Notes under the pieces: model-generated | What the model was told of the DNA's origin: nothing | Databases searched by the model: none | Seen by the model: the letters and a program-made list of their open reading frames with translations, nothing else | Made by a program: the position numbers and the translations under genes | Origin: Schmidtea polychroa | Lineage: Eukaryota | DNA: 64,000 bases | Assembly: GCA_044892525.1 (NCBI GenBank) | Contig: CM097887.1 | Span: 87,150,397 to 87,214,396, forward strand | Reading direction: 5' to 3' | Part shown: piece after piece, positions 8,734 through 33,795 of the stretch | How positions within the stretch are numbered: the stretch's first letter is position 1 | Layout: the number at the start of each line of letters is the position of its first letter

Positions 8734-9912
8734 TTATTGATCGGCGTAGCGAAATCCTTTGATTCCCTGCGCAATCCTCTGTCTGCACATCGGACATTCC
8801 TTTACTTTTCTACTACACGTGGCGCATGCGATCAAATGTCCGCATGGCATATGAATAACTTCTACACTCCTCTCCCAACACATAGTACATTTGATATCTC
8901 GTAAGATAGCTGTTTTGACCATTGATTCTTCTTTTATTTTTGTTTCTGGTTTTTCCCTATACTGAGTTATCGCTCTGATCATATCGTACGTTGTTGTTGA
9001 TATATGTACGTTTTTCTGTAGTCTCTCTCTAATCATTTTCTTTACCCTTGTCGTGCCTATTCCGGCTGCTTTCAACGCTCTGCGCATATTGGGCTTGTCT
9101 ACAACTTCGTCAACCTCTTCTTCTGTTACCAGTACTTCTGGATATTCGGTTTCTTGTTCGCTGCGATATAGGCACCATACTTGATGTCTAATTTCTGGTA
9201 TGCCTTCTTCCGGTAATCTCTGTTGGCTTTCGCACCTTTCACACTTGAGTATTTGCTTTTCTGTCAGGTAGAATCCTCTTATTGCTAGTTCAGGTCCTCT
9301 CGTATCATCTCCGAACGTTTTCATTCTATTATCTGCTATTTGCGTGAGGAATTCCCCTTCACAAGTTGGAACATACTCATCAACGATTTTGGTTATCGCG
9401 ATGCTCATTTTCCCTCCTTTTTCGTCTTCAGTTTTCAATTTCTCCAAGGCTTCGTATTTGATTTCCGGTTTGTTGTGTACATCAAATCCCAGTACGAATA
9501 GACAAGTTGGAAATCGTTTACGATGTTCCTCCTTTGGGTGTTCTCCTTTTTTCCATTCTACTAATTTCCCTTTACAGAAACGACACGTTACTTGATCGGG
9601 TATCTCTGGTTTTCCGGAGAAGAAAAATCCGTCGCGTGCTAGCGCTCGGCTCTGTTCCTTGGTGAAAATGGTCTGATGTTCAAATGACAGATATCTCTGG
9701 TTCTCACATCTGAATTGCTCATTATCTCCCAGTTTCAAATTTTCATGTACCAAATTATAATCATTTCCCATTCTTCGATAATACGCGTAACTACTTGGTT
9801 TTGTTTTGCTGACTTCCGCATCCTTCACTCTTTCTCTAGGTGACGTATTGTCCTCTTCCTCTCTCATTGTGATCGTTTTCTTTCGGATATTCGGTCTCTC
9901 TTGATTAATCAT
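8734..9912 (-). CDS. Inhibitor of apoptosis (IAP)-like protein: BIR, degenerate BIR, UBA-like, RING
   Basis: BIR motif GFFF..DQVTCRFC..W...H...FPTC; second CxxC..H..C; C-terminal RING CTMC..PCGH..CATC..CPMC. Confidence 0.9.
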   Translation of the reverse strand: MINQERPNIRKKTITMREEEDNTSPRERVKDAEVSKTKPSSYAYYRRMGNDYNLVHENLKLGDNEQFRCENQRYLSFEHQTIFTKEQSRALARDGFFFSGKPEIPDQVTCRFCKGKLVEWKKGEHPKEEHRKRFPTCLFVLGFDVHNKPEIKYEALEKLKTEDEKGGKMSIAITKIVDEYVPTCEGEFLTQIADNRMKTFGDDTRGPELAIRGFYLTEKQILKCERCESQQRLPEEGIPEIRHQVWCLYRSEQETEYPEVLVTEEEVDEVVDKPNMRRALKAAGIGTTRVKKMIRERLQKNVHISTTTYDMIRAITQYREKPETKIKEESMVKTAILRDIKCTMCWERSVEVIHMPCGHLIACATCSRKVKECPMCRQRIAQGIKGFRYADQ

Positions 9913-12170: not shown

Positions 12171-15100
12171 TTATACTAGTGTCGCCATGGGGCCGGAATG
12201 CAGCGTGCGCATTCCCCCATATCTTTCGTCCGTTAGTCGGTATATATCGACTTCGTGTGTCCATTCGTTAGGTGTGGGTATTTTTGGTAGTTCCGACATC
12301 CACAATCCGCTGGATTTGGGATCTCTTACCACCTCGTACTCTTCTAGATTCAGATTTTCTGTTGGAATACCGTATTCGAATTTTTCTACCTTGGGCCATT
12401 TTCTTCGGTTCCCGGGTTTTTGTTTACAGCTTTTGGTGGTTCTTATCCATTGGATCATTGCTAACGCTATTATCGTACTTACTATCGCGCTAGTTATCCA
12501 TATCATCTTTGTGATTATCGTTGTTCCATTATTTGCTTTTTCTGTCGTTAACATTATACTACCTGTGGTATTCGTTTCTGGTGCTTTGGTTTTCTTGAAA
12601 GCTTGATGTAGTCGTTCCTTCTCCTTCTCTGTTAGGTGACTGTGATTTTCTCGTTTCTCTCCCCCTTCTTGGTCTCGGGGTATCCATGGTATGTTTATTA
12701 ATTGGGCTTTTTGTCGAGTTATTGGTTGACATACGCTGGTTCCTCTTCCTTTCTTAAGGATACATACTTGGTATCGCTCTTTTCGTTTTCCTGTCTCCAT
12801 TTTAACGTCTGCACCTTGGTCTATCGGTGTTGTTGTACAGTCGATTATTCCCGTCTTATCCATTACACATATCCTTATGATTGGTTCTCCTTCTTGGTTT
12901 TTGACTGTAATTACCTCTTCACCTTTCTTGTTGAGGTTAATAGTTATCTGCACTTCCCGTCTTTCGTCTTTAATTACTTCGTTAATCCATGTTGTTGTTG
13001 TTATTAATTCGGTTTGATTTAGCTCTGTTGTTGTTTTTGTACTAACTGATTTCTTGGGCTTCTTGGTTGTTTTCTCCGTCAATGGACCTTGTTTAATTGC
13101 CATACTCCTTGGTTTGTCTTTTCTTGGTGCAGTTCTTGTTCCTTTACATACTATTATCCCTTGTGTTCCTGCGCATACCACAGTAGGGGTATTTGGTTTG
13201 ACCTCTCCCCAGAAGAATTTGTGATCCTGTGTCATATCAGTTACTATGCATATATCTCTGTCTTCTCTGATGCATACATGTGTAATTGATCGACTCCCTT
13301 TGTCCTCTATTTCGATATATTCTTCCAGAATGTTAAGTTGAAAATGTACTCCGGTTTCATTGGCTCTTTCTAGTTCCATTTCCTCTGTTGTTATGTCTAT
13401 ACAGATGTCATAATCTCCGCATAGCCCGGGGTCTCTTTTTTGGCTGCTAAAGATCTTTCCTTTTGTTATCGATCTGAAATCACAACTTACTCCTGTTCCT
13501 TCCATTAGTTGCACACATATTCCGACGGCGTTTCCGTCGTAATCGCTGACTTTTATCATAAATACTTCGCCTTCTTGGAAAGCTTCTCTTACGATTCTCA
13601 TATTTTTTGTTTCCGTTAAACAGATAGATGTTAATATTATAAATATTCTTTGTAGTAGGATTGGCTGGATTTGATTTCGAAACACTATGCTATGTAGTGG
13701 GGACTTTCGTTTTTTGTTTTCTGTTTTGTCGAATCCTTGATCTTCACCTCGACATTGGTCATCTTCGTCCTCTTCCAACTCCTCATCATCATCCGTTGTT
13801 TCTCCGCCCTCCGGATTTTGTTCTCTGTCGTTTTCCTCTGGGTTGTTATCGTTATCCCCCATCCTTTCGTCGTCGTCATCGTCGTCATTCCTCTCACCCG
13901 GGGTTTTCCCAAAAATGTCGTCCTCGACATTTGTCGCTTTGATCATCTCTTCGTATTTTTTAATTATTTCTTTTTTATCGTTGTGGATACTTTCTCGTTC
14001 TTCTTTGGTTCCTTGATATTTCCGTTGTTTCCGGTGCCATTCCCACACTAGTATTTCTAGTTGCTTTTTCATCGTATGTGCTTTTGTGCATTTCCACCAA
14101 TTACCTGTCAATTCTGCTCTATTTCTTTGTAATATTGCTTTAATGGTTTTTGGCATTGGTGGTCTTGAGTATATGGCGCTTCTTAGTACGATATTTTCGT
14201 TGTTCTGAAATTGATTTATATCAATTACTTCCGCTTTTAATTCGTTTTGTTTCCATTTGATTAACATTGCTGCGGTTCTGTCTAAGTTTCCTCTGATGGC
14301 TTCCAGAATTGTTTCAATGCTCTGTCTCAACACCTCAGCCTCTTCAGCGGTTGCATTTCCCGTGATAAAGTTTAGTATACTAGGTCTTTTTGACCTGACG
14401 GCATAACGTAAGATGGTTCGTTGTTTGTTATCTTTTTCTTTCAACGTGGATCCCGTTCTCAATAATTCTCTGAGTACTTCTCTTGACGCGCCTATTGCTA
14501 TGGCTTTCATCAGTGGAGTTTTTCCTTTACTGTTTTTGACGTTTGTTGATTGTTTGCAGTTTTCCATTATTCGTATAATCTCTAATGCTCGTTTTTCTTG
14601 TCCTGCTTTCACTGCATGATGGATTGGCCAGTTATTACTCAAATCACTTGTTAGGAACATGATTGGTAATCTCCGGATTAGTTCATATATTTGAGTCGGT
14701 ATTTGTAATCCTTCGGCATATCTTCGTCCTTTCGCATATCTTTCTGCTACTAACACTAGTTTGCCCAATACTTGGTATTTATTGGTTATATCGGCCCATT
14801 CTGGTACAATTTCTCGTGCTATTTTTACTGTCATATTCCATGTTGCTTGGCTCCTTGCCATTGCGTCAGCTTCGCTTTCTGCTTCGGTTCCTTTATGGGC
14901 GCTGCTGCTTGTTTCTCCCCTCAACATGAATATCCGTCTTGTCTGTGATCTAGTTAATCTACCGCTTACTTCTGGTTCCGTTGTGGCATTTGTTTGTGAT
15001 CTCGTGATTATCTTCCTTGTTTCTGGGTCTTTAGTGGCAGTTTTCGCTACTGCTTTACATCGACATGTATTAACGTAAATGGGTCTAATTAGTGGGTTGT

Positions 15101-16151
15101 TAACCAACTTTACTCTAGCGTTGTTCTCGTTTACATAAATGATTTCATATGGCCCTCTGCCATTACGTTGTAATTTCTTTGCTGTTCCTGGGATTAATTC
15201 GGGTGTTTCTATAATAACCCAATCTCCGACTTTAAATTGATGGTTTTGCACGTTCTTCTTTTTATCATGCAATTCCTTATAACTTTCTTGGTTGAATCGG
15301 ATGTTCATCCCTGCGGTTTTCCATATTTCTTGCATTCTCTCTTTGAACTTTGTCACATAATCATCTATCTCCATATATTGTGAGATTGGCGGTTGGTATT
15401 CGAGATCCATTGGCATGTTGCATTCCCTTCCGTACATGAGTTTAAACGGACTCATTTTCGTTGCTGAGTGTATTGACATTCGGTAAGCCATTAGGCACAA
15501 CTTAATATATTCATCCCAATCCTTTTGATGTTTACTTACATAATTGGACATCATGTCTATTAGTATGCCGTTAAACCTTTCTGTCTGCCCATTCGTTTGC
15601 GGGTGGTATGGCGAGGTTCTCAATTTGGCAATTCTGAAGTAGTTTGTTACTTCATTTATTATCTCGCTCATGAAGTTAGTTCCTTGGTCTGTTAAGATTT
15701 GTTTTGGAGTTCCATACCTGCAGCAGATCTCTTCTACTAATATCCTTGCAACCGTTCGTGCTTTTTGGTCTGGCATCGCAAATGCTTCAGGGAACTTAGT
15801 CAGATAATCAGTTATTACCAATATATACACATTTCCACTGTTAGTCTCTGGTAGTGGTCCAACTACATCCATTGCAATCATTGTCATCGGTTCTGGCGGT
15901 ATCGGCATTGGTTTCAATGGCGGCTTTAGTTTACTGCCCGTTGTTTTTCTGGTTGCGCATATCAAGCAGTTCTTTATCCATTCTTTCACGTCATCGCTCA
16001 TATTTGGCCAGTAATATTTCTGTTTGAGCCTTGCTTCTGTTTTCTTGGCTGACATATGTCCGCCCAATTTACCGTCGTGGTATTGAATCATAATTTCTTT
16101 CCGTCTACTTTCTGGTAGACACATCAGTCGTTTGTCGCCATCCATTACCAA
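12171..16151 (-). CDS. pol: Polyprotein C-terminal part: integrase, ankyrin repeats, acidic linker, second type I membrane protein
   Basis: HHCC zinc motif, D-D(35)E core (AMDVVG, TDQGTNF, QTERFNG), GPY, KGKTPLMKA ankyrins, TM near the C-terminus; joins the upstream ORF across an A8 run at ~16186-16193. Confidence 0.92.
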   Translation of the reverse strand: MVMDGDKRLMCLPESRRKEIMIQYHDGKLGGHMSAKKTEARLKQKYYWPNMSDDVKEWIKNCLICATRKTTGSKLKPPLKPMPIPPEPMTMIAMDVVGPLPETNSGNVYILVITDYLTKFPEAFAMPDQKARTVARILVEEICCRYGTPKQILTDQGTNFMSEIINEVTNYFRIAKLRTSPYHPQTNGQTERFNGILIDMMSNYVSKHQKDWDEYIKLCLMAYRMSIHSATKMSPFKLMYGRECNMPMDLEYQPPISQYMEIDDYVTKFKERMQEIWKTAGMNIRFNQESYKELHDKKKNVQNHQFKVGDWVIIETPELIPGTAKKLQRNGRGPYEIIYVNENNARVKLVNNPLIRPIYVNTCRCKAVAKTATKDPETRKIITRSQTNATTEPEVSGRLTRSQTRRIFMLRGETSSSAHKGTEAESEADAMARSQATWNMTVKIAREIVPEWADITNKYQVLGKLVLVAERYAKGRRYAEGLQIPTQIYELIRRLPIMFLTSDLSNNWPIHHAVKAGQEKRALEIIRIMENCKQSTNVKNSKGKTPLMKAIAIGASREVLRELLRTGSTLKEKDNKQRTILRYAVRSKRPSILNFITGNATAEEAEVLRQSIETILEAIRGNLDRTAAMLIKWKQNELKAEVIDINQFQNNENIVLRSAIYSRPPMPKTIKAILQRNRAELTGNWWKCTKAHTMKKQLEILVWEWHRKQRKYQGTKEERESIHNDKKEIIKKYEEMIKATNVEDDIFGKTPGERNDDDDDDERMGDNDNNPEENDREQNPEGGETTDDDEELEEDEDDQCRGEDQGFDKTENKKRKSPLHSIVFRNQIQPILLQRIFIILTSICLTETKNMRIVREAFQEGEVFMIKVSDYDGNAVGICVQLMEGTGVSCDFRSITKGKIFSSQKRDPGLCGDYDICIDITTEEMELERANETGVHFQLNILEEYIEIEDKGSRSITHVCIREDRDICIVTDMTQDHKFFWGEVKPNTPTVVCAGTQGIIVCKGTRTAPRKDKPRSMAIKQGPLTEKTTKKPKKSVSTKTTTELNQTELITTTTWINEVIKDERREVQITINLNKKGEEVITVKNQEGEPIIRICVMDKTGIIDCTTTPIDQGADVKMETGKRKERYQVCILKKGRGTSVCQPITRQKAQLINIPWIPRDQEGGEKRENHSHLTEKEKERLHQAFKKTKAPETNTTGSIMLTTEKANNGTTIITKMIWITSAIVSTIIALAMIQWIRTTKSCKQKPGNRRKWPKVEKFEYGIPTENLNLEEYEVVRDPKSSGLWMSELPKIPTPNEWTHEVDIYRLTDERYGGMRTLHSGPMATLV
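14355..14640 (-). other. About 3 ankyrin repeats
   Basis: NNWPIHHAV, KNSKGKTPLMKAI, KDNKQRTILRYAV. Confidence 0.8.
15030..16100 (-). other. Integrase domain
   Basis: H-H-CxxC, DDE, GPY motif. Confidence 0.95.
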
Positions 16152-19100
16152 TAGCCATTCTTTCTCGATTGTATATCTTTGACGATTTTTTTTCCATATG
16201 TTCTTTCAATCGATCATCGTTGTTGAATATTTTCATATCGTTTTTATCCAGGAATTCGATTATTAGTTTCAATTCGCTGTCTTCCTTTTGTTCGTTCTTT
16301 AGATTGGTAAAATCGATATCTTCCGCGATTATCATGCATATTCGCCTGACGTCATGATCCATGAGTTCTTCAAATACGAATCTCGACATGCAATCCGCAT
16401 TTGCGTTTGCTTTTCCTGACTTGAACTTGATGTATGGGGAATATTCTTGTAATTGCATTGCCCATCTCATTAATCGACTAGATGCTTCTTTATGTTGGCC
16501 CAACCAAACTAGAGGTTGATGGTCCGTAGTAATAATTATCTCGTGTCCCCATAATAAATATTTGAAATGTTTTATCGCCTGAATTATTGCTAAGGCTTCT
16601 CTTTCTGTGACCGAGTAATTCTTCTCGTGTTTTTTGAACGTCTTGCTATAATATCCGATGACTCTTTCTCGTTTCTCCTCATCCCATTGTCCTAGCACAG
16701 CTCCTGATGCATATCCACTTGCATCGGTTGCTAATAGAAAGGGCTTCTTGAAATCTGGATGTATTAAGATAGGTGAGGCTATTAACTTGTCTCTTAGCGA
16801 CTCGAACGCTATTTGCTGTTCTCTATCCCACAGAAATGGAGTGTCTTTTTTCGTTAGTTCCTGAATTGGTTTTGCTATAGTTGCATAATTTTTGATGAAC
16901 TTGCGGTAGTATCCGCATAATCCCAGAAATTCTTGTACTTGAGTCACGGTCTTCGTTATCGGACAATTCTTTATCTTTTCAACATTTCTCGGATCTGGTT
17001 CCTTTCCTTTTGCCGACACAATATGTCCTAAAAATGTGACTCTCTCCTTTGCCCAATCGCATTTTGACGGTTTCAATTTCAGCTTCCATTGTTTCAGTCT
17101 CACGAATACGTTCCTGATGTCGATTAAGTGTTGTTCGAACGTACCTGAATATATTAGCAGATCATCAATATACACCATACATTGTTTAATTCCGTGTGTC
17201 ACAAAGTTCATACACCTTTGAAACGAAGCAGCTGCGTTTGTTAATCCAAATGGCATCTTTTTAAACTGATATAAATCTTTTCCTATGGTAAAGGCTGTCT
17301 TTTCTCGGTCTTCTTCTTTAACTTTAATTTGCCAGTATCCGCTCTTTAGATCTAAAGATGTAAAGTATGCTGCTCCATGCAACATCTGTAACATTTCGTT
17401 TATGTCTGGCAGTGGATATGTATCCCTTTTTGTTACTGCGTTCAACCTCCGATAATCAATACAAAATCTCTGTGTACCGTCTTTCTTTTTGACCATTACT
17501 ACTGGGAATTGCCATGGTGAACAGCTAGGTTCTATTACTCCGGCATCTAACATCTTTTGTACTTCTTCCTCTGCTACCGTTTTTTGTGCTTCGGCTAATC
17601 GATATGGTCTTAACGTTATGGGTGTCTCATCTGTTAATGGTATAATGTGTTGAGTTACATCGCTAGTACCCAAATCCAAATCTGAAGCCGCAAAAATATT
17701 TTTAAATTCAATCAGTAGTTGTCGGAGTTGTTCCTTTTCGTCTTCATTTAGGAGTTCGCTATCGATGGTCCATAATTCTTTTTCGTCTGCTCCCTCGCTT
17801 TTTATCTCCGGCAGCTCAATGTTCATCATTGGTGTGAGTTTTCCAAGTCTCTCGTTTTCGTAGATTACTTTATCTTCCTCATCAAAATTGGTGATGTTGA
17901 TGGGTATCTCGTTATCCTCATTTATACTGACAATTTCTCTTGCCAATGGCAGCTCCCTTCTCTTCTCGAATTTTTGACTTGGTTCAAATATCATATCTCC
18001 TTTGGCTTCGTTATCGACCTTGACATAACATATTGTCTGGGTACGTGCTGGTATTATCATTTTTTCGGAGCATCTCACTTCTGTTCTCATTGTGCATATC
18101 TGTCCAGTTTTATCTTTTAATTTCATGGAACTCAAATCAATCACAATTTCTTTCAATAATTCCGGCATTACATCTGTTCCAATTATACATGATACGCTTA
18201 GCTGTCTAATGACTGCGAGGTACGTTGTAACTTTAACCCCTTTGTATTCGATCGTTGACCATACTCTTCCTACTACCGCTATGGATTGTTTGCTGCATGT
18301 TATTACATCCATGGTTGTTTCCTCAATGCATGGCCATAGTCTTCCTGGTAGCATATTCATATTTATTGCTGAGATATTTGCTCCGGTATCAATCATTGCA
18401 TCCATCTCTATTCCGTTTACTTCGACCGTGATAGTTAATGATGGTCCTGCTGGTGTCTGCAATACCGCGATCGTTCGTGTCTCCACCTCTTGCCCCACAT
18501 TTTTAACTGGCTTGATCATTGTTGGGTCCAGTGCTGCCCAATTTGGTTCATAAGCCATTGGATAAATATTCGGTACGGGTAATCTTCCGGTTCCCATTCT
18601 TATCCGTTCTCTCATTGTTCCTGGTCGTCGCATTGGTCCATTAGTTGGTGCCTGTAAATATGGTGATCCCCATGGTTTCATTTTTTCGTTTTCCCAAGTG
18701 GCTGTATTTTTGTTTATCAACATTACTCCTCCTTGATTATTATCGTCGTCGTCGAAATCATCATTGTCATCACTATCATCGTCTCGTCTGAGATTCATCC
18801 ACTTTTTCCACTTCCCGGTTCTTTTCGCTTTCTCTTGAGTTCTTTCTGCTTCTAATCTCATTATCACTTTGAACTTACGTCCGACTTCTTCGTCTGTTCC
18901 TTTCATTTGCGTTAATATTTTCAACAATCTTTTTATTCGATGAATATCCTTTGAGTGTCCATGCAACACCATTGTTTTCGCTAAGAACGGTAAGAATCCA
19001 ATTGCAAGTTTCCAATTTACTTTTCTCTCGCGCTTATAGATGTCAAAACATGCTAGCATCTGAGTTAGTATCACTCTAACTATTTGTATTATCAGAATAA

Positions 19101-22100
19101 TTCCGAGTATTCCTGCCATCATTTGGCCAAATACTAAAAATCTACCGCACATAGCCTTCATCATGTTTGCTGTTGCTTGTTGGTAGTGACTTGGTGATAA
19201 TAATAGCTCGTAGTTCGGGCTCTCCCCATAATTATTTCCTCCAGAAATAGTCACTATATTTGATAAGATTGCTTGTCTTTGCGCTGGGAATAACAGGTGG
19301 GCTCTTGCTGATTCGAGATCTTTTGGTGTATATAATCCACTCTGGGATACGTCTATCGGCTTGAACTCTAGTTCTGTTGTTAGTTCCGTCAATCCAAATT
19401 TCTTGGGTGTTACTACGATTGTTTTACTTGGGAATTGAACCCATTGTCCATCTTCTTTTTCATACATTGGTCCATATGCATTACTACAATTAAACAGATT
19501 TGGTTGAAACCCTACCGGGTTCATTACCCTAGTGACTGCTTGCACAAACCTGGGTTTACCTTCGTGAATAATTTCGAGTTCGTTTGCACACTTATCTCTT
19601 GGTATTGTAGGGTTTTCTGGCAATCTTGCCATTATCTTTTTGCATTGGTAGGTGTACATCACTTCGCCCACGATTCGTCCGAAATATCCTTCCTGTAATG
19701 GTAGTAACGGAATTGCGTTATCTGGATTTGTAATCGCCATTGCTAATTTTGTTCTCAGTATTTCTTTGTTGAGCAGGCAATCGTTTCTTAACAGGTCATG
19801 GTAGACTTTTTCCGTGGATGTTAATCCTCTGTGATATAAGAAATCCATCTTATTATTAGCGTATAAATATAGTTTGACATCCTTTTCGCTTAGTCTTCCG
19901 ACTGCATTTGCTAGGGTTCTCCGCGACAAGTAGATCCCTTTATAATTGGTGCTGATCACCATCTCATCGCATTTACTCACCATTTTGTTCTTTATGAACC
20001 TCATTCCTATTCCATCGTCTTTGGAGATTATCGCTGTGGGTGTTACTTCCGATTCCAATTTCGATGTTATTACGTCTTCTCTGAATCCTTTCCTTGCTCT
20101 CAACTCTTCCATCGCTCGTTTTTCTGCTTCTCCTTTTGGTTCACTGTATACTTTCCCTTGGATTTCTTCGAATATTGCTGTTTTGAGTAACATTAGTCGA
20201 CATACTTTCTGATCCGCATGGTATACCAGAGTTGACATCCCGGTTGAACATGATCGATCTGATGCGAGACAACTTGGGTATTTCTTCATTGCTTGCGTGT
20301 CAGGGTCGAAATAACCTTGGTACCTTTCTAATTTAGCTTCGTAGCTTTCTATTACAACCACTCCACTAACCAGTTGTCCGTTCAAGGTGTATGTTCCTGT
20401 CTCACATGTTCCGTCTCCTTTAGTGATTCTGCCTGCCGTATACACGCGAGTTGTTTTTATTTTTCCTGGTTCTGCAGCAATTTCAATCCCTTGCCTTAAG
20501 TGGATTCTCCCCGATCGGAATCCTTCCTCGCATTCCCCTCTTGATAGTAATATTACTGTCGATTCCAATCCCGGTTCTATGATTGTTGAGTGGGAGGATG
20601 AACCGCAGTGATGTGCAAATATCTTTCTGGTTACCGTACATTCTTGGACCATGGTTTTGATGAAATCTGCTTCTTGATATACGTTATACGAGACTGATGC
20701 CATGACCGTTTGTAATTTTCTTGGGTTTGCTGCTTTACAGTCTTCCGTATCCTTTAATGAATATTTCTCATGGATTTTTATGTTGTCGCAGTCGTATACT
20801 GCAAATGACTCCGTTCCTTTGATACACATCATCCATATCAGTATCGTGGTTATTATGGCGTTCATTCCCTTTCGGCTTGCTCTTGGGTCGTTCATATTGA
20901 TTGTTCCTTCGAATTCCGTTAGCAAATCGCGTAACTTTGCTTGCATCATTTCCGTTTGATCTTTCTTCCCAGTTGATTCGATGAAGTTTCTCCATCCCCC
21001 TTGTTCAAGTATATATGGTTCTATTGATCGTTTGATTATTTCTGTTACTGTGAATTCATAACCAGTTGCGTTATATTTTGGCATTCGTTTTTTATATTGA
21101 CCAATGACGTTATACATCAAATATGCTAATCCCACTAAATATCGATTTTGGTCCTCTGATCTGCTTAACAGATGTTCCACAATTAATCTGAGTTCCACGG
21201 GATCCTTTAACGTTAATCGAATTTTGTTATCCATGATTTTCATTATTATCGGTTTCAATACCGCCCATAATTGTTTGGCTTCGGTCGGGATATGATCCTT
21301 CCTCATTACTCTTTTCACATCTGGATTTGCTAACGCTAACATGTTAGCAAATAAGTCGTTTATCCATCGTGTCCCTTGTTCCCGGACGTTTGTTTTCACT
21401 TTGACTTGTTTTACTAATGCGCTTAGTTTATCCATTTTAGTTTTTACCTGTTCCATTTGTGCTTGAATTTTGGATTTTGGTTCCACCTCTGCTTTATCTG
21501 TTTTTGGTCTTCCTCTTGTTCGTCGATCCATAGCCGTTCCGGTTTCTTTCCGTTTTGGCGGATTGTAAGTTGTATCTTTTGACGTGGTCGCTCTTGGATC
21601 TACTCTCCAGTTACTCCATTCATCGGTTGTGGTTACATCTTTATTGGCACTTCCTCCCACATTATCTAAATCCGTCTCGGCTTCTGTTGTTTCCACTGGT
21701 TGTCTTTGCGCACATACAAATCCATTTAGATCATCAGTTGTTGGTTCACCTTCGTCGATAAATAGATCTCCCGATTGCGATGCTCTCATAATCTCGCCTG
21801 CTTCTACTATCTCTTGTAATTCGTCCAGTATTTCGTCTTCTCCTGTTGTTTCGATCGTCACTTCACTAACCGCATTCGGAACTTCTGGTGTGTCTAAACT
21901 TCCTGGTTGTTGTGTAGATGATTTGTGCTTTATTTCTCTTCTCCTTAATTCTCTCCCTGCAATTTTACTCACCGTTAATCTGTTCACAATTTCTCCTTGG
22001 AGTGGTGTCACACCAATTTCGATATCGTCGTCTAATGATCGTCCCTCGTGTTGTAAGTGGAATGGGAGTTCATAAGGTATTCTCTTTTTAACTTCCCTGA

Positions 22101-25100
22101 CCTTGGCTGTTGTGTAGAATTCCTTTTCCATTGGTTCAAAATCTGGCAAGAATATTTTTAGTTGATATTTCTCAGGTGAGTTTTCGGCCCACTCTTGTTG
22201 TTTCCATTTCCGGATGATTTCACCAAACTGTTCAGGGTACCATACGTATACCCGTCGATATTCTTCAATCGCTTTAACGATTTTTCGTAGGTTTTGAATC
22301 CTTTTGCATGATTCGGCTATCCATTTTGCTAGTTCTACTACCGCTCGTCGACGATTTTTCGCACCGTTTTGTAATATCTCCATCAATTCCTTACATTTTT
22401 GTGCTTCCAACAATGTTGCTGCTTCCTCCTCATCTGCGTCGGCGTCTATTGGTAGATGTCCTGAATCAGGCACTCTTCTCCTCATCATACAGATTCTCGG
22501 TTGATTTTCTGGTATGTTCAGTCGTTGGTTCATTTCTTGTTCTGTTTCAACTTCTACTCTGATCTGGATAGCATTGTCTTTCACAAATATTGATTGTTCA
22601 TTCTCAATGTAATTTAGACGTATTAATTTAGACGTCCCAGAGGCGATATTTTCTAATGTTGTTGGTCGTTGGTAGCAGGTGCTTCTTGGGTCTGGTTTCA
22701 TTGTTTCTTTATGTACGTTAAGGTTATCTTTCAGTGGTTCGATCGCTATCGTTACCTTTCTGCTAAACGGCCATGGTACCTTATCGTCATAATTCCCTTT
22801 GCAGATGATGAAGAATGCCGACACATAATTTCCTTTTCCTACCCCATCTCCGTTCGGGTATATTCGCAATTTCATTTTGTACTCACCTAATCCTGAGTAG
22901 AACGGTGGACTTACTAATCGTGTGATTTTCTCTTCCCTTGCTGATTTTATCTTTTCCATCCAATTCTCAATTTTCCACGTGAATGGTGCTAACCTTACCG
23001 GTTCTCGTATATCCTCATCTTCTCCTGATTGTAACTCATTTTGGAATTCTTGTGGTAATATATCCTGGTAGGTATCGATTGGTTTCTCTCTTACCCATAC
23101 TGCTGCGATCTCTTCGGGTATATTATCTATCCAATTTGGTTCCAACTTTTGCTGCTCCCAATCCCATCGAGCTTCACTTTCGATCCACACTTTTTTCCAT
23201 GGTATCAGTTTGCAATCTTCGTCATTGAAGGCTGCTACTTTTAGTTTATCATCCTTTAGCCAATGGTTATAAATATCTATTATTCGATCCATCTTTGCTC
23301 TCATCCCCCATTGGAATCTTTTAATTTGTTGCTCTGTTTTGGTGGCGTTTTTGTGTCCACCCGATGGTTCATCCATCGCGATTATATTGATGACGGCTCC
23401 ATCTTCCCAGATTCCTAGTTCGTAAATTACAGTTCGGTCTCCTCTTTCTAACATATGCCGGTTGTACATTATTATCACATCTTCGATCATTCCATCCTCA
23501 CTATTTTCTCGAGCTTTTTGGATGATCTCTTGATCTATGATTTGCACTAACTCGTCAACTTGGCAATCGGGGTCAACTTCTATTATTTGTTTCTCTTCAT
23601 TTGGCAACTTCACCTTTATTTTTATCGTTTCTCGTTCGCATTTGGTTCTCTCGTATTCTCCGTATTTAGATATCAATTCTGTCGCTCGTTTATCTTCGAA
23701 TCTCATAATTTCCGTGTCTCGTACGTCTTTGACAAATTGTTTCATTAGTTGTGGCCATCTTTCTCTCAGTCTATTAATATATTTTCTTGCCTGATCGATA
23801 GCTTGTTTAACCAAGATTATTTGGTTTTCTTTCATTATTTTTCGTTCGATCTTTTCCAATTCTGGTTCCACTTCATTGTTAAACACTTGTTGGATTTTCT
23901 GGAACATTTCTGCCACTGATTCGTCGTCTCTGGTTTTCTCTAAGGTTAAGATGTTAGTTTCGTTTGGCCCTATCATCGCATCTACCAAATGTATGCCCAT
24001 TTTAAATTTGTAACCATCGACATATAATTGTTTATTTTTATGGCTCGTTCCCATTTTTTCCTGTACCCAGTTGTACAGTTCATCGGTATTTGTTCCTTTT
24101 AATTCAATAGTCTGTATCTGAATCTCTGGGTGTTGAATACTTACTTGATATTGATCTGGGCCTGCTTCCTTTAGTTTCTCTTTATATTTTGTTGCTAAAT
24201 CTTTCCATGCTGCCGTTATTATACCTCCTTCACACTGGTATACTTGAGTTATAAGTTTTACGCATTTTCTATATGTTAACTCGTTGATGTAGCTCTCATT
24301 CCGCTCTATTTCTGTTACTGTGTCGAAAATTTCCTCAAATATCTCCTCATCATCTTTTTCTATCATTGATTTCATGTCATCATTTTCACTCTCATCGCTA
24401 CTTTGAGGTGTTTCACTGTTTGGAGGTGTTTTCGGTTCGTTGTTTTCCTCACTTGACTGAAATAATTCGCCTCCCAGGCTACTCACCTCACTTTTCTCAT
24501 CTTCCTGATCCGTCTGATCACTCCGCATTTGTCTCAACATGTTTATTTTAGCTTTGGTATGTGGTTCTTTCTTTTCGAACCACTCATTTTTCCTGAACCA
24601 ATGCTCTTTCACTTTTTCTTTAATTTGTTCCTCAGTTAATGTAGGGTTTTCGTTTTTGATTCTGTCTTCGATTTTTTGTAGTAGTACCCTCTGAATTCGA
24701 TTTTTTGTAACTATCTCATTGCTTTTTGGTTCGTCTTTACCCTCATCTCTTTTTTGTCTTTTTTCTTTCTCCTCTTGGGTAAATTCTTTAATCAATTGTA
24801 TTTTCTCTTCACTGCTTAATTCTGTTCGTTGGTCAATCTCTTTTTCTTTTGTTATTTTTATCTCCTGGTTTATTATCAGATCACTCCCTTCGTTGTTAAC
24901 ACACTGCTCCGCAGTGTGCGATTCCTCTTTATTTGTTAACCTCATCATATTTATTCTTCCGGGATTCGCTTCCCGTTGTTTCCATCTTTCTTGAATTTCT
25001 CTGGCTTCTTCGTTTTGTAATCTTTGCCATTCGATTCGTTGTTGGTCTTGTTGTTGCTTACTTGGTTGTTTCCGGATTTCTTCGGTGCTCTGCATCATGT

Positions 25101-25335
25101 TGATTCGTTGTTGTTGATTATTAGTCGGTATTCGCTGGATCATATCTTTTAATTGTTCGATTTCCTGCATGAGGTTGATTTGTGTGTTCCGTATTGGATT
25201 GTTTGATCCTGGTTGGTTTGGTTTGGCTCTCATCGTGCATTCTCTTGCCATGTGTCCAGGCTGGTTACAATTGTAGGCATCGTGGGACCTCTGCAGATGT
25301 TTTCCGTGTGGCCTCTTCTCCCACACTTTTGACAC
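16105..25335 (-). CDS. pol: 3076-aa polyprotein: Zn knuckle, coiled coils, UBLs, MATH, Bcl-2-like, Env, PR, RT, RNase H
   Basis: Uninterrupted ORF; IDTGA, YIDD, LATDASG...EREALA...TTDH...ADCMSR. Confidence 0.95.
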   Translation of the reverse strand: MSKVWEKRPHGKHLQRSHDAYNCNQPGHMARECTMRAKPNQPGSNNPIRNTQINLMQEIEQLKDMIQRIPTNNQQQRINMMQSTEEIRKQPSKQQQDQQRIEWQRLQNEEAREIQERWKQREANPGRINMMRLTNKEESHTAEQCVNNEGSDLIINQEIKITKEKEIDQRTELSSEEKIQLIKEFTQEEKEKRQKRDEGKDEPKSNEIVTKNRIQRVLLQKIEDRIKNENPTLTEEQIKEKVKEHWFRKNEWFEKKEPHTKAKINMLRQMRSDQTDQEDEKSEVSSLGGELFQSSEENNEPKTPPNSETPQSSDESENDDMKSMIEKDDEEIFEEIFDTVTEIERNESYINELTYRKCVKLITQVYQCEGGIITAAWKDLATKYKEKLKEAGPDQYQVSIQHPEIQIQTIELKGTNTDELYNWVQEKMGTSHKNKQLYVDGYKFKMGIHLVDAMIGPNETNILTLEKTRDDESVAEMFQKIQQVFNNEVEPELEKIERKIMKENQIILVKQAIDQARKYINRLRERWPQLMKQFVKDVRDTEIMRFEDKRATELISKYGEYERTKCERETIKIKVKLPNEEKQIIEVDPDCQVDELVQIIDQEIIQKARENSEDGMIEDVIIMYNRHMLERGDRTVIYELGIWEDGAVINIIAMDEPSGGHKNATKTEQQIKRFQWGMRAKMDRIIDIYNHWLKDDKLKVAAFNDEDCKLIPWKKVWIESEARWDWEQQKLEPNWIDNIPEEIAAVWVREKPIDTYQDILPQEFQNELQSGEDEDIREPVRLAPFTWKIENWMEKIKSAREEKITRLVSPPFYSGLGEYKMKLRIYPNGDGVGKGNYVSAFFIICKGNYDDKVPWPFSRKVTIAIEPLKDNLNVHKETMKPDPRSTCYQRPTTLENIASGTSKLIRLNYIENEQSIFVKDNAIQIRVEVETEQEMNQRLNIPENQPRICMMRRRVPDSGHLPIDADADEEEAATLLEAQKCKELMEILQNGAKNRRRAVVELAKWIAESCKRIQNLRKIVKAIEEYRRVYVWYPEQFGEIIRKWKQQEWAENSPEKYQLKIFLPDFEPMEKEFYTTAKVREVKKRIPYELPFHLQHEGRSLDDDIEIGVTPLQGEIVNRLTVSKIAGRELRRREIKHKSSTQQPGSLDTPEVPNAVSEVTIETTGEDEILDELQEIVEAGEIMRASQSGDLFIDEGEPTTDDLNGFVCAQRQPVETTEAETDLDNVGGSANKDVTTTDEWSNWRVDPRATTSKDTTYNPPKRKETGTAMDRRTRGRPKTDKAEVEPKSKIQAQMEQVKTKMDKLSALVKQVKVKTNVREQGTRWINDLFANMLALANPDVKRVMRKDHIPTEAKQLWAVLKPIIMKIMDNKIRLTLKDPVELRLIVEHLLSRSEDQNRYLVGLAYLMYNVIGQYKKRMPKYNATGYEFTVTEIIKRSIEPYILEQGGWRNFIESTGKKDQTEMMQAKLRDLLTEFEGTINMNDPRASRKGMNAIITTILIWMMCIKGTESFAVYDCDNIKIHEKYSLKDTEDCKAANPRKLQTVMASVSYNVYQEADFIKTMVQECTVTRKIFAHHCGSSSHSTIIEPGLESTVILLSRGECEEGFRSGRIHLRQGIEIAAEPGKIKTTRVYTAGRITKGDGTCETGTYTLNGQLVSGVVVIESYEAKLERYQGYFDPDTQAMKKYPSCLASDRSCSTGMSTLVYHADQKVCRLMLLKTAIFEEIQGKVYSEPKGEAEKRAMEELRARKGFREDVITSKLESEVTPTAIISKDDGIGMRFIKNKMVSKCDEMVISTNYKGIYLSRRTLANAVGRLSEKDVKLYLYANNKMDFLYHRGLTSTEKVYHDLLRNDCLLNKEILRTKLAMAITNPDNAIPLLPLQEGYFGRIVGEVMYTYQCKKIMARLPENPTIPRDKCANELEIIHEGKPRFVQAVTRVMNPVGFQPNLFNCSNAYGPMYEKEDGQWVQFPSKTIVVTPKKFGLTELTTELEFKPIDVSQSGLYTPKDLESARAHLLFPAQRQAILSNIVTISGGNNYGESPNYELLLSPSHYQQATANMMKAMCGRFLVFGQMMAGILGIILIIQIVRVILTQMLACFDIYKRERKVNWKLAIGFLPFLAKTMVLHGHSKDIHRIKRLLKILTQMKGTDEEVGRKFKVIMRLEAERTQEKAKRTGKWKKWMNLRRDDDSDDNDDFDDDDNNQGGVMLINKNTATWENEKMKPWGSPYLQAPTNGPMRRPGTMRERIRMGTGRLPVPNIYPMAYEPNWAALDPTMIKPVKNVGQEVETRTIAVLQTPAGPSLTITVEVNGIEMDAMIDTGANISAINMNMLPGRLWPCIEETTMDVITCSKQSIAVVGRVWSTIEYKGVKVTTYLAVIRQLSVSCIIGTDVMPELLKEIVIDLSSMKLKDKTGQICTMRTEVRCSEKMIIPARTQTICYVKVDNEAKGDMIFEPSQKFEKRRELPLAREIVSINEDNEIPINITNFDEEDKVIYENERLGKLTPMMNIELPEIKSEGADEKELWTIDSELLNEDEKEQLRQLLIEFKNIFAASDLDLGTSDVTQHIIPLTDETPITLRPYRLAEAQKTVAEEEVQKMLDAGVIEPSCSPWQFPVVMVKKKDGTQRFCIDYRRLNAVTKRDTYPLPDINEMLQMLHGAAYFTSLDLKSGYWQIKVKEEDREKTAFTIGKDLYQFKKMPFGLTNAAASFQRCMNFVTHGIKQCMVYIDDLLIYSGTFEQHLIDIRNVFVRLKQWKLKLKPSKCDWAKERVTFLGHIVSAKGKEPDPRNVEKIKNCPITKTVTQVQEFLGLCGYYRKFIKNYATIAKPIQELTKKDTPFLWDREQQIAFESLRDKLIASPILIHPDFKKPFLLATDASGYASGAVLGQWDEEKRERVIGYYSKTFKKHEKNYSVTEREALAIIQAIKHFKYLLWGHEIIITTDHQPLVWLGQHKEASSRLMRWAMQLQEYSPYIKFKSGKANANADCMSRFVFEELMDHDVRRICMIIAEDIDFTNLKNEQKEDSELKLIIEFLDKNDMKIFNNDDRLKEHMEKKSSKIYNRERMAIGNGWRQTTDVSTRK
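16380..17700 (-). other. Reverse transcriptase and RNase H
   Basis: RFCIDYRRLN, LDLKSGYWQ, MPFGL, YIDD, TDAS. Confidence 0.97.
18110..18450 (-). other. Aspartic protease
   Basis: AMIDTGANIS ... IIGTDVM. Confidence 0.92.
18960..20805 (-). other. env: Envelope fusion glycoprotein, chuvirus/Monjiviricetes-like (class III)
   Basis: Signal-like segment, then FAVYDC..YSL..C, many conserved-looking Cys, GYFGRIVGEVMYTYQC, SGLYT, C-terminal TM segments. Confidence 0.8.
20975..21440 (-). other. Bcl-2-like domain
   Basis: BH2-like IEPYILEQGGWRNFIE; weaker BH1-like LIVEHLL..DQNRYLVGLAYL; helical. Confidence 0.6.
22548..22985 (-). other. TRAF-type MATH domain
   Basis: FTWKIENW..SPPFYS..YKMKLRIYPNGDG..YVS.F..CKG.YDD.VPWPF. 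Confidence 0.9.
23380..24150 (-). other. Two ubiquitin-like domains (23380-23625 and 23940-24150); a weaker third at 21975-22168
   Basis: IKIKVKLPNEEKQIIEVDPDCQVDEL...IMYNRHMLE and TIELKGTNTDELYNWVQEKMG...QLYVDG follow the ubiquitin pattern. Confidence 0.55.
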
Positions 25336-26345
25336 ATCCTTGCTCTATAACATTCATTGCTCCAATGCCCTGATCGTTGGCATATGTTGCACGTTCGATT
25401 GTCGTTGTTCCTGAAATTATTAGTGAAATTTTGAATATTACCTCCATTGTCTTGGTTTCTCGTTTGTGGGGTTTTGAACAACTGTTGCGATCCTGGGATG
25501 AATTGATTCATTACTGGATTTGCATTATTGACTTGGTTGTTTGTGGTTGTTGTTGTTGTTGCTGGAGCTGCTGGAGCTGCTGTCATTGCTGCTACTTGTA
25601 TTGGTGTTAGGTAAGTTTCACATTTGTTGGCTATTTTTAGTGCTTCTTCTAGCGTCTCTGGTGCTCGACATCCCAAGGTTGCTCGTATATCTTCTCGTTT
25701 CATGCCATCTACGAATACGGCTATTATCTTGTCTTCCGGAACTGGCTGATTTGAATCGAAGGCTTCTCGTGCTAGTCGTCTCAATTCGCATGCGTACAGT
25801 GCGTTGGATTCGTTATATTTCTGCTTTCGATGCAGAAAGTCTAACATTTTTCGATTTCCCTCTTTTTCGGTACCGAATGTTTTTATTAAAAACTCCTTGA
25901 TCTCTTTCCACGTTCTCAACTTTGTTGCATCACATTTCGCCTCCAAGTATACATCTTGGGCGCTTCCCTTTAGATATAGGGGTATTCGTTCTCGTACGAC
26001 TATGTCTGGCCAGTGACATATCGTAATGTATACTTCAAATTCTTTTATAAATGTTTCTAGCTGGTTTATATTTCCATCGAATGGCTCTCCTCGAAATTTC
26101 TCTCTGAATTCTCCAATGTTGACGTGCACATTACTTGTTTCCGGTGGGTCCGTTACCCTTTGTTCATTCGTGTTTCCGTCCGACATTATCTCTTGGCACA
26201 GTACGGTTATCTCTGTTGTCTCGGATATATTTTCCTCTTCTTCAGTTGATTCGACGTCGCTTATTGGATCTAATTCGGTTCGTTTGAAATCGTCGCTGTT
26301 CTCAAATTCGTTAGTTAAACTGTCTGATTCAAATACTGTTTCCAC
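25230..26345 (-). CDS. gag: Gag (capsid plus two CCHC knuckles); true start uncertain
   Basis: PFDGN...FIKEFE...LYLKGSAQDVY capsid motif; CNICQRSGHWSNEC and CQKCGRRGHTENIC. Confidence 0.92.
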   Translation of the reverse strand: METVFESDSLTNEFENSDDFKRTELDPISDVESTEEEENISETTEITVLCQEIMSDGNTNEQRVTDPPETSNVHVNIGEFREKFRGEPFDGNINQLETFIKEFEVYITICHWPDIVVRERIPLYLKGSAQDVYLEAKCDATKLRTWKEIKEFLIKTFGTEKEGNRKMLDFLHRKQKYNESNALYACELRRLAREAFDSNQPVPEDKIIAVFVDGMKREDIRATLGCRAPETLEEALKIANKCETYLTPIQVAAMTAAPAAPATTTTTTNNQVNNANPVMNQFIPGSQQLFKTPQTRNQDNGGNIQNFTNNFRNNDNRTCNICQRSGHWSNECYRARMCQKCGRRGHTENICRGPTMPTIVTSLDTWQENAR

Positions 26346-27264
26346 TGATGCTTGTTTCTTGTGTAGTTTTCTGTTTTTCTTGGCTCTTTCTATCTCTTCC
26401 TTTTCTAATAAACTGAGGTTTCCTTTACTTTTTCGTCTGGTTCGGCTAGCTATATTATCAATTTTTCCTCCTTTTAATATCCTTTGATAAATTTTCTACT
26501 TCGTCGATCGAGCTTGATGTTTCTAATTATTGTCTTGCTTTACTCTTTGCGATTCTCTAATTCCTCTTGGGTTTGGTTTCTTTAATTCTTCGCTTTTGAT
26601 TGATTTCTTTATATCTCTTGCTTTCTATTACTTTCTCGATTTCTTTGATTTCTTTCTGAATTGTTTGCTTTATTCTAAAATAATTAACACCTCTAGTACA
26701 TATCATAAATTCTCTTTATTAAACCCTTCATTTACTTCCCATTTTCCCTTTATTTTACTGTTCCTTCGCTTCAAATTTCTAACTTTTCTACACTTCTCGT
26801 TATTCGCCCCATTTTGACTTTAAGTTGATTTTAAATTATCTATAACTCGTATCAATTATCTATATAGTCGTATCAATTATCTATCCCTTTTATAATCATC
26901 ATAGAAATATAATATCAATCACATAAATATCAAAATAAACATATCATTAATAAATAAAATTCAATAATTCAACTACTATCTATTCGTTCGCTTTTCCCCA
27001 TCCAAAGACTGGTCTCATTTTTACTTGCGCCGGCGCTCTATCATAATTTCCCTTTACTTATTACATATTTAACGCACTTAATCTATTTCAATTTAATCAA
27101 TTCCATAGTTAATCATCAATGCTTTGGTTCGCGCGACCTCTGCATCTACCTTTATTTACCATCGACTCCCTGACCGGTTCAATCAACTCTCCTATTTCAT
27201 TTAAATCATTTCACTCAATTACCATCGGCTCCCTGGCCGGTTTAATCAACTCATTTTAATCTCA

Positions 27265-30536: not shown

Positions 30537-31001
30537 TTATCGTGTGCTGGTCGGTTCTCTTGGCGTAGCCTCTGATTCAGTAGCATGGAGAGCTAATTGG
30601 GCCTGGCTGGCCTGCCTTATCCTCGCTCGTGCCGCTTTTCCCGGCCGAATCTTCTTCCTTGGGGTTACTATTGTGGGGGCAGGTTCCTTTGGTCGATGGA
30701 GCAACTCATCTAAAGGCCGGATCTTGGCAATGACCTCTCACTCCAGCTCCTGTTGATGCACCTTGGCTCCCAGTTCCCTCACCCTTAAGCGGAGGGCCCG
30801 CAACTCAATCTGGTCTTGAGCATTCTGAAGTTGTAGTTGGGTGATTAACTTCATCTTCTTCTTCATCTCCGCTGGTGGGAACCAGGTACACTCGAAGTTC
30901 CGACAGTGGGCCTTGACTCGTGTCCACTTAGTCCGGTATTCGTCTACCTGTCGTTGTGCCTGTTCCCTATCGGCTCGTATCTCTTCCAAGAGTTTCTGCA
31001 C
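30537..31001 (-). pseudogene. Second LTR-encoded coiled-coil ORF, 155 codons with one internal TGA (30738-30740)
   Basis: The frame stays open for about 66 codons past the TGA (EVIAKIRPLDELLHRPKEPAP...); no ATG; preceded by CTTTGTTTAG; partial copy at 1-218. Confidence 0.4.
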
Positions 31002-31410
31002 TAAACAAAGGTAAGATCAATGATTTTTACATCGACATCGAGGGTCGGGCATTATTATGGGCATTAAGGCTAAAAGAAAGTAATCTCCTCGTCGTAGTCC
31101 TTCGCTATGCGCACCCCAAGACCGAGACCTAGTTGTCTTACTCAACCTATAGGGTTGTTGTCGCTATAGAAATGTGTATTCAACAATGATGATAGTCCAC
31201 GTCATGGACATTACAAACAATCCACACAATTAAATTGTCACCGACCATCAAGACACAAACAAACCTTAAATAATTATGATGAACTGTTAAGGCCTAACAT
31301 ATTTTATTCAATCCTGGATTAAAGAGGTTTAATCCAGTACATAATATCACCTAATACACCCGACACTAAGGTCAGCACAAAATGATTAGTTTTGATCCCG
31401 AGTTTTCCGC

Positions 31411-31893
31411 CTACTCTCCGAATCCCGCGCTCTCCTTGGTCGAGCGGGTGGACGTTCGCGCGCGTCCGCGTGTCCTTGGTCGTCCTGGTCCTCGTTGAGG
31501 CCGTCTTGGGTATTTTAATCCACGCTGAAGAGCCGCGGTCCGTTTCGGGTGACATTGGGCTCGAGCGTAGCCGTCGCAGTCTTCTACCTCGCCAGCCAGA
31601 GTCGCTTTCTCGAGCCGGTGTAATCGGTCTATCGCATCCGTCACTTCGTCAAAAGCGTCGATCAAGGCTAACGACGCGTGGTTGAGGTACGGCTCCACCT
31701 TCGGAATTACGGGGATCACGTTCTGGTAAGTCCAATCATGGATCTTGTACCAGATCCATCTAGACCTTAGGCGAGCGATTTCCGATTCTTCCCTCAATCG
31801 GACGGCTTCATCTGCCTCTTCGCCGCTACCTCCGCGGTTCCAGTCAGTCGACGAGTGACCTTCTCGTATCTTCTTTGGTTCGGTACTGAGCAT
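31411..31893 (-). CDS. LTR-encoded 160-aa ORF (5' LTR copy)
   Basis: Identical to 628-1110. Confidence 0.5.
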   Translation of the reverse strand: MLSTEPKKIREGHSSTDWNRGGSGEEADEAVRLREESEIARLRSRWIWYKIHDWTYQNVIPVIPKVEPYLNHASLALIDAFDEVTDAIDRLHRLEKATLAGEVEDCDGYARAQCHPKRTAALQRGLKYPRRPQRGPGRPRTRGRARTSTRSTKESAGFGE

Positions 31894-33409
31894 GGCTGTA
31901 ATGATAAAAGAGGTATTAGGCGAATCTTTGTCCCTCTATCTGTGGTCGTTTACTCCAACATGTCTAAACCCCCCATTACGATTTACATCCAAGCATACTA
32001 GGCATTCAATCCCATAGACCAATGATTTTGTATGTGAAGTAGATTAAATTACTAATTAATTTCCATATTGATTTATTTATCCGATTAGATCGCGGATTAC
32101 TAAATTAAATTAAATTTGTACATTGACGGTTGGTAAGTAAATTAAATTTAAGACAAAGAAAAATTAAAATTTCGTAAATTAAATTAAGACAAAAATTAGA
32201 ATTTCGTAAATTAAATCAGAATCGCATATTTCAAAGATTTTGTTTAATTTGATTAAAAATTAAATTTGTTATTCTTAATGTCTAATATTCTTCAAATTTT
32301 GGTTTAACGATAATATGCAATTACTATGCTACTAAGACCTACTACGAGGAGGGACATTACTACATATCGAGAAATTTTACTCGGTCTCTAGTAATACCTA
32401 ACCGTAAGGGTTGTGAGTAGCTCCACCATCATCCCAGTTGGATAAGTAAAAGGACAAAAAAAAATTGGTTAGTTTTCCATTTGTTTAATTTTAGGAATTC
32501 GATCCTTCCAGCTTTCAGTCTCAACGAGGGGTGTATTCGGATGAATTCTGCAACAGTCGTGGCCTAATAATAATCTAACGTATGCCAATTCCCCCATTTG
32601 TGACGCATTTGTGCCCCAGATTATGGGTAACCCCATTCTCGTGTTTATGGATATACATGTGGGGGAATACAGGACAAAATGTTAATCTGAAGAGGATTTA
32701 GTGAGGCTTTCTGCTCATTCCTCTGTCTACATCGTTGTTAAGCATTTTGCGGTGACTGATAATCTTTCCTGTCTATAAGTATTATAATTTTATTTAAAAA
32801 ATAAAAATTTTGTTCTTATTAAATTTAATTGAATAACTCGCTTTAACGTTATGTAATAATTTTTATATGTTTTTGTCAATTGTTTTCTCTTACATTTACA
32901 TAATCAACGATTGTAATCATAGGACCCATTACTACTCCTTACTTTTCGCCTATGATCATGAGGTATATGTGTCCTAGCTTGAATGGTCGATGTGTGGGAT
33001 CCATCTTGGGGAATAACAGGGTTAAATTCGCCAAGACATCGGGGTTTTAGTCAAGGATCAGGACTTCCGCTGTCGAGGCTGATGGTGATTGGTTCGTTTG
33101 CGAACACGCATGCATCGTCCATTTGGTCGGTCAGGGTAATTTCAGTGAGGGCACCCCTTAGTATTCAGGGTTACTTCTATAAATAGAACCAATTTTATTG
33201 GTTAGAGTTTTCATTAGGGAAAGAGCAATAATTGATGTCGGTTTTGAAGTTTTCTATTAATAGAAACATTTCAGAAAATCGATATATTGGTTGGAGTAAA
33301 TTATATAAGGAACAAAGGGGGGTAGGATCATTGTAACTAAATTTAGACCTAGAGGAATCCCAAAGATCGCTAATTAAATAAAAAAAATTTGTAATAATTA
33401 ATTAATAAC

Positions 33410-33762: not shown

Positions 33763-33795
<33 letters not shown>

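Follow-up and report, generated by a model that had tools for sequence, protein, structure and literature searches.

A predicted Bcl-2-fold domain directly upstream of the predicted internal Env signal peptide in a Burro-type gypsy retroelement of Schmidtea polychroa

In the present study, we analyzed 64 kb of Schmidtea polychroa DNA (the window), in which a giant retroelement carries a diverged, predicted Bcl-2-fold domain before Env in the same reading frame. Between the two lies a hydrophobic helix that, on sequence comparison, is the signal peptide of Env by descent and not a captured Bcl-2 tail. We lean towards a reading, resting on sequence and a predicted model, in which this internal signal stays on the Bcl-2 side after cleavage as an ER anchor and the domain has a likely job in cell survival; we hold this combination to be slightly more probable than even.

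A single giant LTR element fills part of the window on the minus strand. It is a virus-like gypsy retroelement of the Burro type, with LTRs of about 4.9 kb each and a spacing of 30.8 kb. Three overlapping frames (Gag; zinc knuckle to RNase H; integrase and ankyrin) are followed by BIR-RING and TRAF-like genes, and the pol order is PR-RT-RH-IN. The features of the element are as follows.

30785..35684, minus strand: 5' LTR, paired with 2-4721
28995-29477, minus strand: lone RING, upstream of gag
25230..26495, minus strand: gag frame (PF03732, PF19259)
16105..25344, minus strand: 3079-aa open frame with zinc knuckle, MATH, Bcl-2-like, Env, protease, RT and RNase H
22549..22983, minus strand: MATH domain (PF22486, E 1.5e-28)
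21502..21525, minus strand: basic motif RRTRGRPK, presumably AT-hook-like, just upstream of the Bcl-2-like domain and also present in elements without Bcl-2
12171..16205, minus strand: frame with integrase, ankyrin and a C-terminal membrane protein (Pfam, hydropathy)
10053-11516, minus strand: TRAF-like gene, in which a stop separates the zinc fingers and the start of MATH from the end of MATH
8734..9912, minus strand: IAP-like accessory gene (BIR-RING) of this element (PF00653, E 4.8e-16; PF13920)
5075-8654, minus strand: two coiled-coil-like frames and one frame with signal-like and transmembrane-like helices
2..4721, minus strand: 3' LTR, 99.3-99.8% identical to 30785-35684; the window begins at or within this LTR

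In the window copy, frame breaks lie between the gag frame and the 3079-aa frame and between RNase H and the integrase frame. We scored 145 of 1724 candidate copies in the same genome, all of which had identities of 97-100%. Since about 50 of these 145 (hand count) have an open frame of at least 4770 aa, the family is a single-frame one, of which the window carries a broken copy. Outside the element, long inverted repeats (84-93%) at 41340-41688 and 46296-47247, about 5 kb apart and with tandem subunits, are perhaps a DNA transposon.

The feature in the preliminary description (20805-21440) is real and corresponds to aa 1302-1514 of the minus-strand frame 16105-25344. The region around it is composed of the following parts.

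20956..21393, minus strand: Bcl-2-fold domain, aa 1318-1463 of the 3079-aa frame (profile match, E 2.3e-6; predicted model)
21133..21159, minus strand: BH1-equivalent, with DQNR in place of NWGR, aligned with two host NWGR genes
20983-21000, minus strand: BH2-like motif GGWRNF
20866..20982, minus strand: linker, which holds TINMN (20890-20904) and ends in the basic n-region RASRK (20869-20883)
20806..20865, minus strand: predicted internal Env signal peptide and putative C-terminal anchor of the upstream product; cut predicted between 20806 and 20805, with T and S at -3 and -1
19138..20805, minus strand: Env ectodomain, a Monjiviricetes-type fusion glycoprotein (PF24664, E 3.4e-66; N-terminal part, model positions 25-186)
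19045..19137, minus strand: Env transmembrane helix (hydropathy), a putative stop-transfer that would return Pol to the cytosol

The claim of a Bcl-2-like domain was borne out by a profile match and by a predicted fold in the Bcl-2 class. Relatives were collected via the Pfam Bcl-2 model for family B and via Env for families C, D and E, together with three metagenome loci. A profile of the window and nine relatives picked through Env alone, which excludes family B and, therefore, holds no rows chosen for Bcl-2 likeness, gave matches over helices 4-8 to Bcl-2 (E 2.3e-6) and to Bcl-xL (E 9e-5). PF00452 was matched at E <= 0.1 by 16 of the 22 aligned members (best 3.2e-7; the window's own sequence was not among them) and independently by four library relatives at E <= 0.0021. 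The window sequence alone reached E values of only 0.6-1.6 against Bcl-xL, although 35 of 35 rows were Bcl-xL.

An AlphaFold2 model built from 22 element-only rows (pLDDT 66, pTM 0.67) was compared with 48,161 chains. The top 33 rows were all Bcl-2 folds, and the first unrelated row had a Z of 6.1. The best structural match was KsBcl-2 (Z 12.0, rmsd 2.7, 130 aligned), and BHRF1 and A179L reached Z 11.8 and 11.6, respectively. Residues 5-150 of the predicted model align with Bcl-2 folds as a helical bundle around central helix 5. The comparison with Bcl-xL and viral Bcl-2 proteins proposed in the preliminary description yielded a predicted bundle of the Bcl-2 type. Foldseek also ranked Bcl-2 proteins first, at E about 0.01. 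A single-sequence fold of the domain was set aside, and the ESM Atlas returned no usable match for the domain. Word-index protein searches were blank where a full HMMER search found relatives, and their blanks carry little weight.

A chance helical region that is not Bcl-2 would fit with the lack of a Pfam Bcl-2 match for the window sequence alone, the lack of a Foldseek match at E 0.001 and the single-sequence pLDDT of 42. However, this explanation is largely refuted by the Env-picked profile, the 16 PF00452 matches among 22 members, the structural Z of 12.0 and the four independent PF00452 matches, and we give it almost no credence. These results support a diverged Bcl-2-fold domain, as a prediction from the model. 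The domain is under purifying selection in four subfamily pairs (omega 0.14, 0.44, 0.40 and 0.20); Env and the signal gave 0.03-0.15 and 0.04-0.22 in subfamily pairs, all by a simple counting method without intervals, and the window's own family was not measurable.

The helix between the domain and Env, MNAIITTILIWMMCIKG, starts at 20865 on the minus strand. As the preliminary description stated, it is the first hydrophobic helix: it provides the first 15-mer with a mean KD of at least 1.9 in the 3079-aa frame, and no such 15-mer occurs in the short gag frame upstream. The proposed cleavage sequence GTES/FAVYDC was also found, with its boundary at 20806/20805, and the predicted cut fits the register of free glycoproteins. 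The spacing of about 30 aa from BH2 needs correction, as 42 residues separate the BH2 Trp (1451) from Met1494. A basic n-region is present in 11 of 12 element rows and small residues occupy -3 and -1 in 11 of 12 (rule-based); the cut falls three places before Y/F-D-C in element rows. The uncharged core comprises 16 residues in the window and 11-24 across rows, and the uncharged run measured in the 12 element rows spans 12-23 residues.

In free Monjiviricetes-type fusion glycoproteins (PF24664), xx[AG]YDC comes after the signal, at the register seen in the element. Their signal is N-terminal with nothing upstream, unlike the internal signal of the element. In the full HMMER search, we examined the best 150 of 668 matches; 125 of these 150 had the motif, and 88 had a Met start no more than 45 residues before it. 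Among the same best 150, the -1 residue was A, G, S or C in 75 of 86 short-N-terminus proteins with upstream residues, mostly of length 15-25, some such library proteins being gene-calling fragments. The Pfam Env model begins within the helix (model positions 4-12). Because the register is common to free glycoproteins and the Pfam model starts inside the helix, we consider the helix to be the signal peptide of the glycoprotein family, with cleavage expected at GTES/FAVYDC.

The helix belongs to Env by descent because it is kept where Bcl-2 is absent. Again among the best 150 of 668 matches, a Bcl-2-like domain was detected in 9 of the 36 with more than 45 residues upstream (element profile E < 1e-6), and four of these nine also match PF00452 weakly. 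Several in-frame Gag/Env/Pol polyproteins keep the signal without Bcl-2. Where Bcl-2 is present, it is always directly before the signal, at a spacing of 20-59 residues; the linker length varies threefold across rows, and the domain-helix-Env layout is common to 17 element lineages.

The Env tree comprised 39 rows (13 Bcl-2-bearing, 12 Bcl-2-less and 14 from free glycoproteins) and left out five Bcl-2 rows with short Env and seven long-upstream rows. The window family was sister to the Bcl-2-less P0008 (97/85). The Bcl-2 label needs five changes on this tree, the backbone of which is weak and mostly unresolved. A single clean Bcl-2 clade was not seen, and 0% of 200 bootstrap trees on this weak backbone had one. 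Since the helix is retained in Bcl-2-less relatives, including the sister P0008, its conservation needs no Bcl-2 role. In these sequences, the helix appears to follow Env, and Bcl-2 to come and go in front of it. P0009, named in its source as a hypothetical protein of a Flavobacteriaceae MAG, is actually an Env-PR-RT-IN gypsy polyprotein and likely represents eukaryotic contamination of a bacterial bin.

The suggestion that a Bcl-2 tail anchor doubles as the Env signal holds in part: the signal character and the cut register agree with it, whereas the helix is Env's by descent and is kept without Bcl-2. Judged as a tail anchor, the helix lies 20-59 residues after BH2 and is short and signal-like. 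When an internal signal comes after a large cytosolic region, its N-terminus stays in the cytosol on insertion, which is the orientation of a tail anchor. Together with the predicted cut downstream of the helix, this topology makes dual use as signal and anchor likely.

Taking the observed domain order, homology and 17-lineage layout as a starting point, we infer topology, cleavage, trimming and a survival job as follows. The Gag side would be made in the cytosol by the ribosome, and the helix would then engage the translocon of the ER, its N-terminus remaining outside. After a signal peptidase cut at GTES/FAV, Env would pass into the lumen, and Pol would be put back in the cytosol by the transmembrane helix of Env. 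This would leave the Gag-side precursor held at the membrane next to Env, with Bcl-2 as the domain nearest the membrane. The element protease would later trim this precursor to about 560 residues, namely, a ubiquitin-like part, an acidic linker, Bcl-2 and the anchor. From the ER surface, the product would most probably keep the producing cell alive together with the element's IAP, via a non-canonical groove. We propose a survival role on the basis of the fold, the selection, the element's IAP and the reported protection of stem cells by the IAP of Burro1 (Lee et al. 2026, as cited in PMC13465017).

A signal that is cut by signal peptidase resides in the ER and not in the mitochondrial outer membrane. 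The claim of an anchored Bcl-2 protein in its native topology stands as far as the helix would be left on the Bcl-2 side; the membrane would be that of the ER, and the product of about 560 residues or more is not Bcl-2-sized. The size follows from the motif [RK]I[NCF]M[MLI], which is repeated at domain borders (six seen versus 0.03 in shuffles, for a motif defined after seeing the sequence). These sites, listed below with the stretches that appear ubiquitin-like by eye, are likely sites of the element's protease, as judged from their sequence and position.

25168-25182 (looser match), 25093-25107, 24943-24957, 24535-24549, 22483-22497, 16330-16344 and 14922-14936, minus strand: protease-site-like motifs
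22483..22497, minus strand: RICMM, aa 950-954, the nearest such motif upstream of the domain, with putative cleavage
23353-23631, 21940-22173 and 23920-24162, minus strand: ubiquitin-like stretches

No well-scoring protease-site-like motif was found in aa 960-1325. The closest one (aa 951) lies some 560 residues upstream of the cut, so the upstream product would be larger than a Bcl-2 protein. Of these up to three stretches, only that at 23353-23631 had a Pfam match, a weak one to PF21403 (E 0.0014), and it ends in GG at aa 664; the one nearer the domain (aa 1058-1135) had no Pfam match and ends in AG. A Gly-Gly cut of the ubiquitin type that frees the domain was rejected, as the nearer stretch ends in AG and no GG is common to the families.

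The main alternative is that the helix is only a transient signal and that the Bcl-2 product is set free by signal peptide peptidase or the element protease, to act in soluble form or as particle cargo, in the manner of the HCV and pestivirus core. The short core (best 19-mer KD 1.35 in the window) is only moderately hydrophobic and contains Thr and Cys. It looks closer to a cleavable signal than to a stable anchor, which argues against the anchor, and may be removed by signal peptide peptidase. As described in PMC8310223, hepaci- and pestivirus polyproteins have a cytosolic protein with the first envelope protein's signal behind it, and signal peptidase separates the two, as predicted here; internal signals are retained as anchors on the upstream product, and signal peptide peptidase trims the signal remnants of the core. 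The upstream protein is the core in these viruses and a captured host-type regulator ending the Gag-side precursor here. The partial protease motif TINMN in the window linker, which is unchanged in the 20 of 20 copies read, also fits with release; such weak I-N-M motifs were seen eight times in the three frames versus 1.3 expected by chance. However, TINMN scores about 2 versus 5.5-15 for held-out boundary sites, at rank 33 of 4820 windows. No conserved protease site was found in the linker across rows. Furthermore, the short linkers (20-23 residues) of family C and P0011 have no such site by eye, and families C, D and E have uncharged runs of 20-23 residues. We consider release unlikely, but worth keeping in view. 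Intracisternal A-particle Gag uses a signal-like anchor, a precedent that our literature search did not confirm.

Alternatively, Env might be translated from its own message, spliced or initiated internally and beginning at Met1494, in which case the helix would be an ordinary N-terminal signal that is rarely joined to Bcl-2. This Met is exactly 20 residues before the cut in the window family and B1, which is the usual length of a free signal. However, it is absent in B2, C, M85 and 1 of 20 window-family copies, none follows the stop in M83, and the 60 nt before Met1494 are purine-rich without a pyrimidine tract. Two of 12 rows have no Met from BH2 to the cut and others have Met solely in the hydrophobic core, which argues against a separate start. 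As Met is not conserved, we regard a separate Env message as very improbable. In contigs of four runs of presumed type, which cannot show absence and carry no weight here, none of the 15 joints listed (of 16) touches the signal region. In a single metagenome copy, a stop (L083:3058-3060) separates the Bcl-2 domain from the Env signal, and no Met occurs from this stop to the cut; a decayed copy or an error is likely.

The GGWRNF named as a BH2-like motif in the preliminary description is present. The region reads YILEQGGW; the Trp of GGW is invariant in 22 of 22 rows, and the first Trp of W-x(4)-GGW is Tyr in the window. In contrast to the viral Bcl-2 homologs of dsDNA viruses (KsBcl-2, BHRF1, A179L, F1L and M11L), with which it shares the predicted fold at 12-13% identity and a C-terminal hydrophobic helix (PMC11209288, PMC9027176), the element domain lies within a retroelement polyprotein, has a long N-terminal extension and has lost NWGR. 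Its helix also differs from their tails as an Env signal with predicted co-translational insertion into the ER. NWGR occurs in 0 of 17 element lineages; its Gly is kept in 1 of 17 and an Arg or Lys in 12 of 17. According to PMC9027176, the Gly and Arg of NWGR are important for Bcl-2 family interactions, whereas PMC11209288 describes poxviral proteins without recognizable BH motifs that still bind Bak, Bax and Bim. Any BH3 binding by the element domain is, therefore, putative.

The loss of NWGR raises another explanation, in which the anchor is real but serves particle assembly, with Gag tied to the ER by Env, and the Bcl-2 fold does not bind BH3 and acts as a scaffold or signaling modulator with the element's MATH/TRAF-like proteins, like poxviral A46, A52 and B14. 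These three proteins act on NF-kB. They occur among the fold matches, several helix-keeping lineages lack the domain, and MATH and TRAF-zinc-finger genes lie within the same element. However, A52, A46 and B14 (Z 6.4-8.0) stand low in the ranking, below the members that bind BH3 (Z 9-12), the Arg position is basic in 12 of 17 lineages, and the poxviral precedent for BH3 binding without BH motifs applies here as well. We consider this explanation improbable and continue to favor an ER-anchored domain with a survival job.

Other parts of this genome and of related elements have similar arrangements. In the window, the polyprotein ends in a further internal signal-like helix with an ectodomain, a Thr-rich stalk and a transmembrane helix behind it (13617-13661 and 12453-12497, minus strand). 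The same design, noted for L078, L082 and L085, occurs right after integrase in families B and C, and between protease-like domains in L085. Pfam gave no informative match for the polyprotein-terminal ectodomain, which is possibly a second surface protein. Two dispersed multi-copy repeats of the genome (L036-L041, L049 and L050; L043-L048) bear Bcl-2-like genes that stand alone and have hydrophobic tails of their own; one repeat seemingly has an intron and the other adjoins a frame that is TBP-like by eye. Both are likely other mobile elements with captured Bcl-2.

The Bcl-2-like domain and its position before Env are already known from Burro. Burro/GYPSM1 elements of planarians are giant gypsy LTR retroelements of more than 30 kb with long LTRs (PMC6431247, citing Grohme 2018 and Jurka 2007). 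Their polyprotein of about 4,800 aa comprises three zinc knuckles, MATH, a BCL2-like motif, Env, protease, ankyrin and BIR, and Env, in frame between BCL2 and protease, was presented as the first in-frame case (PMC6431247). Compared with this published description, the element family of the window has the same size class and long LTRs, a single frame for Gag, MATH, BCL2-like, Env and Pol, and also ankyrin and BIR. Burro ORF1 is 4,873 aa (PMC6431247) and most open copies here are 4,791 stop to stop; unlike the single Burro polyprotein, the window copy is split over three frames. PMC6431247 is silent on a signal peptide, cleavage, anchoring and the BH1 of Burro. Our literature search did not find the signal and anchor reading, the domain limits, the BH1 loss or the 17-lineage spread for Burro, although Grohme 2018 and Lee 2026 may cover them. 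After PIWI loss, BURRO1 RNA appears in differentiated tissues according to PMC8532177, the consulted part of which does not mention Bcl.

More tentatively, and with considerable doubt, we propose that a captured Bcl-2 was parked before the Env signal, such that one host cut yields a mature fusion protein and an ER-anchored viral Bcl-2 at 1:1. As a working Bcl-2 encoded by a retroelement, with a remodeled BH1 groove and together with the IAP, it may protect expressing cells, including planarian stem cells. The viral Bcl-2 proteins surveyed in PMC11209288 come from dsDNA viruses. The domain limits, the cut site and the BH1 caveat make the anchor reading testable. If true, it would explain the membrane access of a Gag that has no hydrophobic segment of its own. 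It would also provide the element with a second, membrane-bound survival module that is made one for one with Env, thereby extending the story of the Burro1 IAP.
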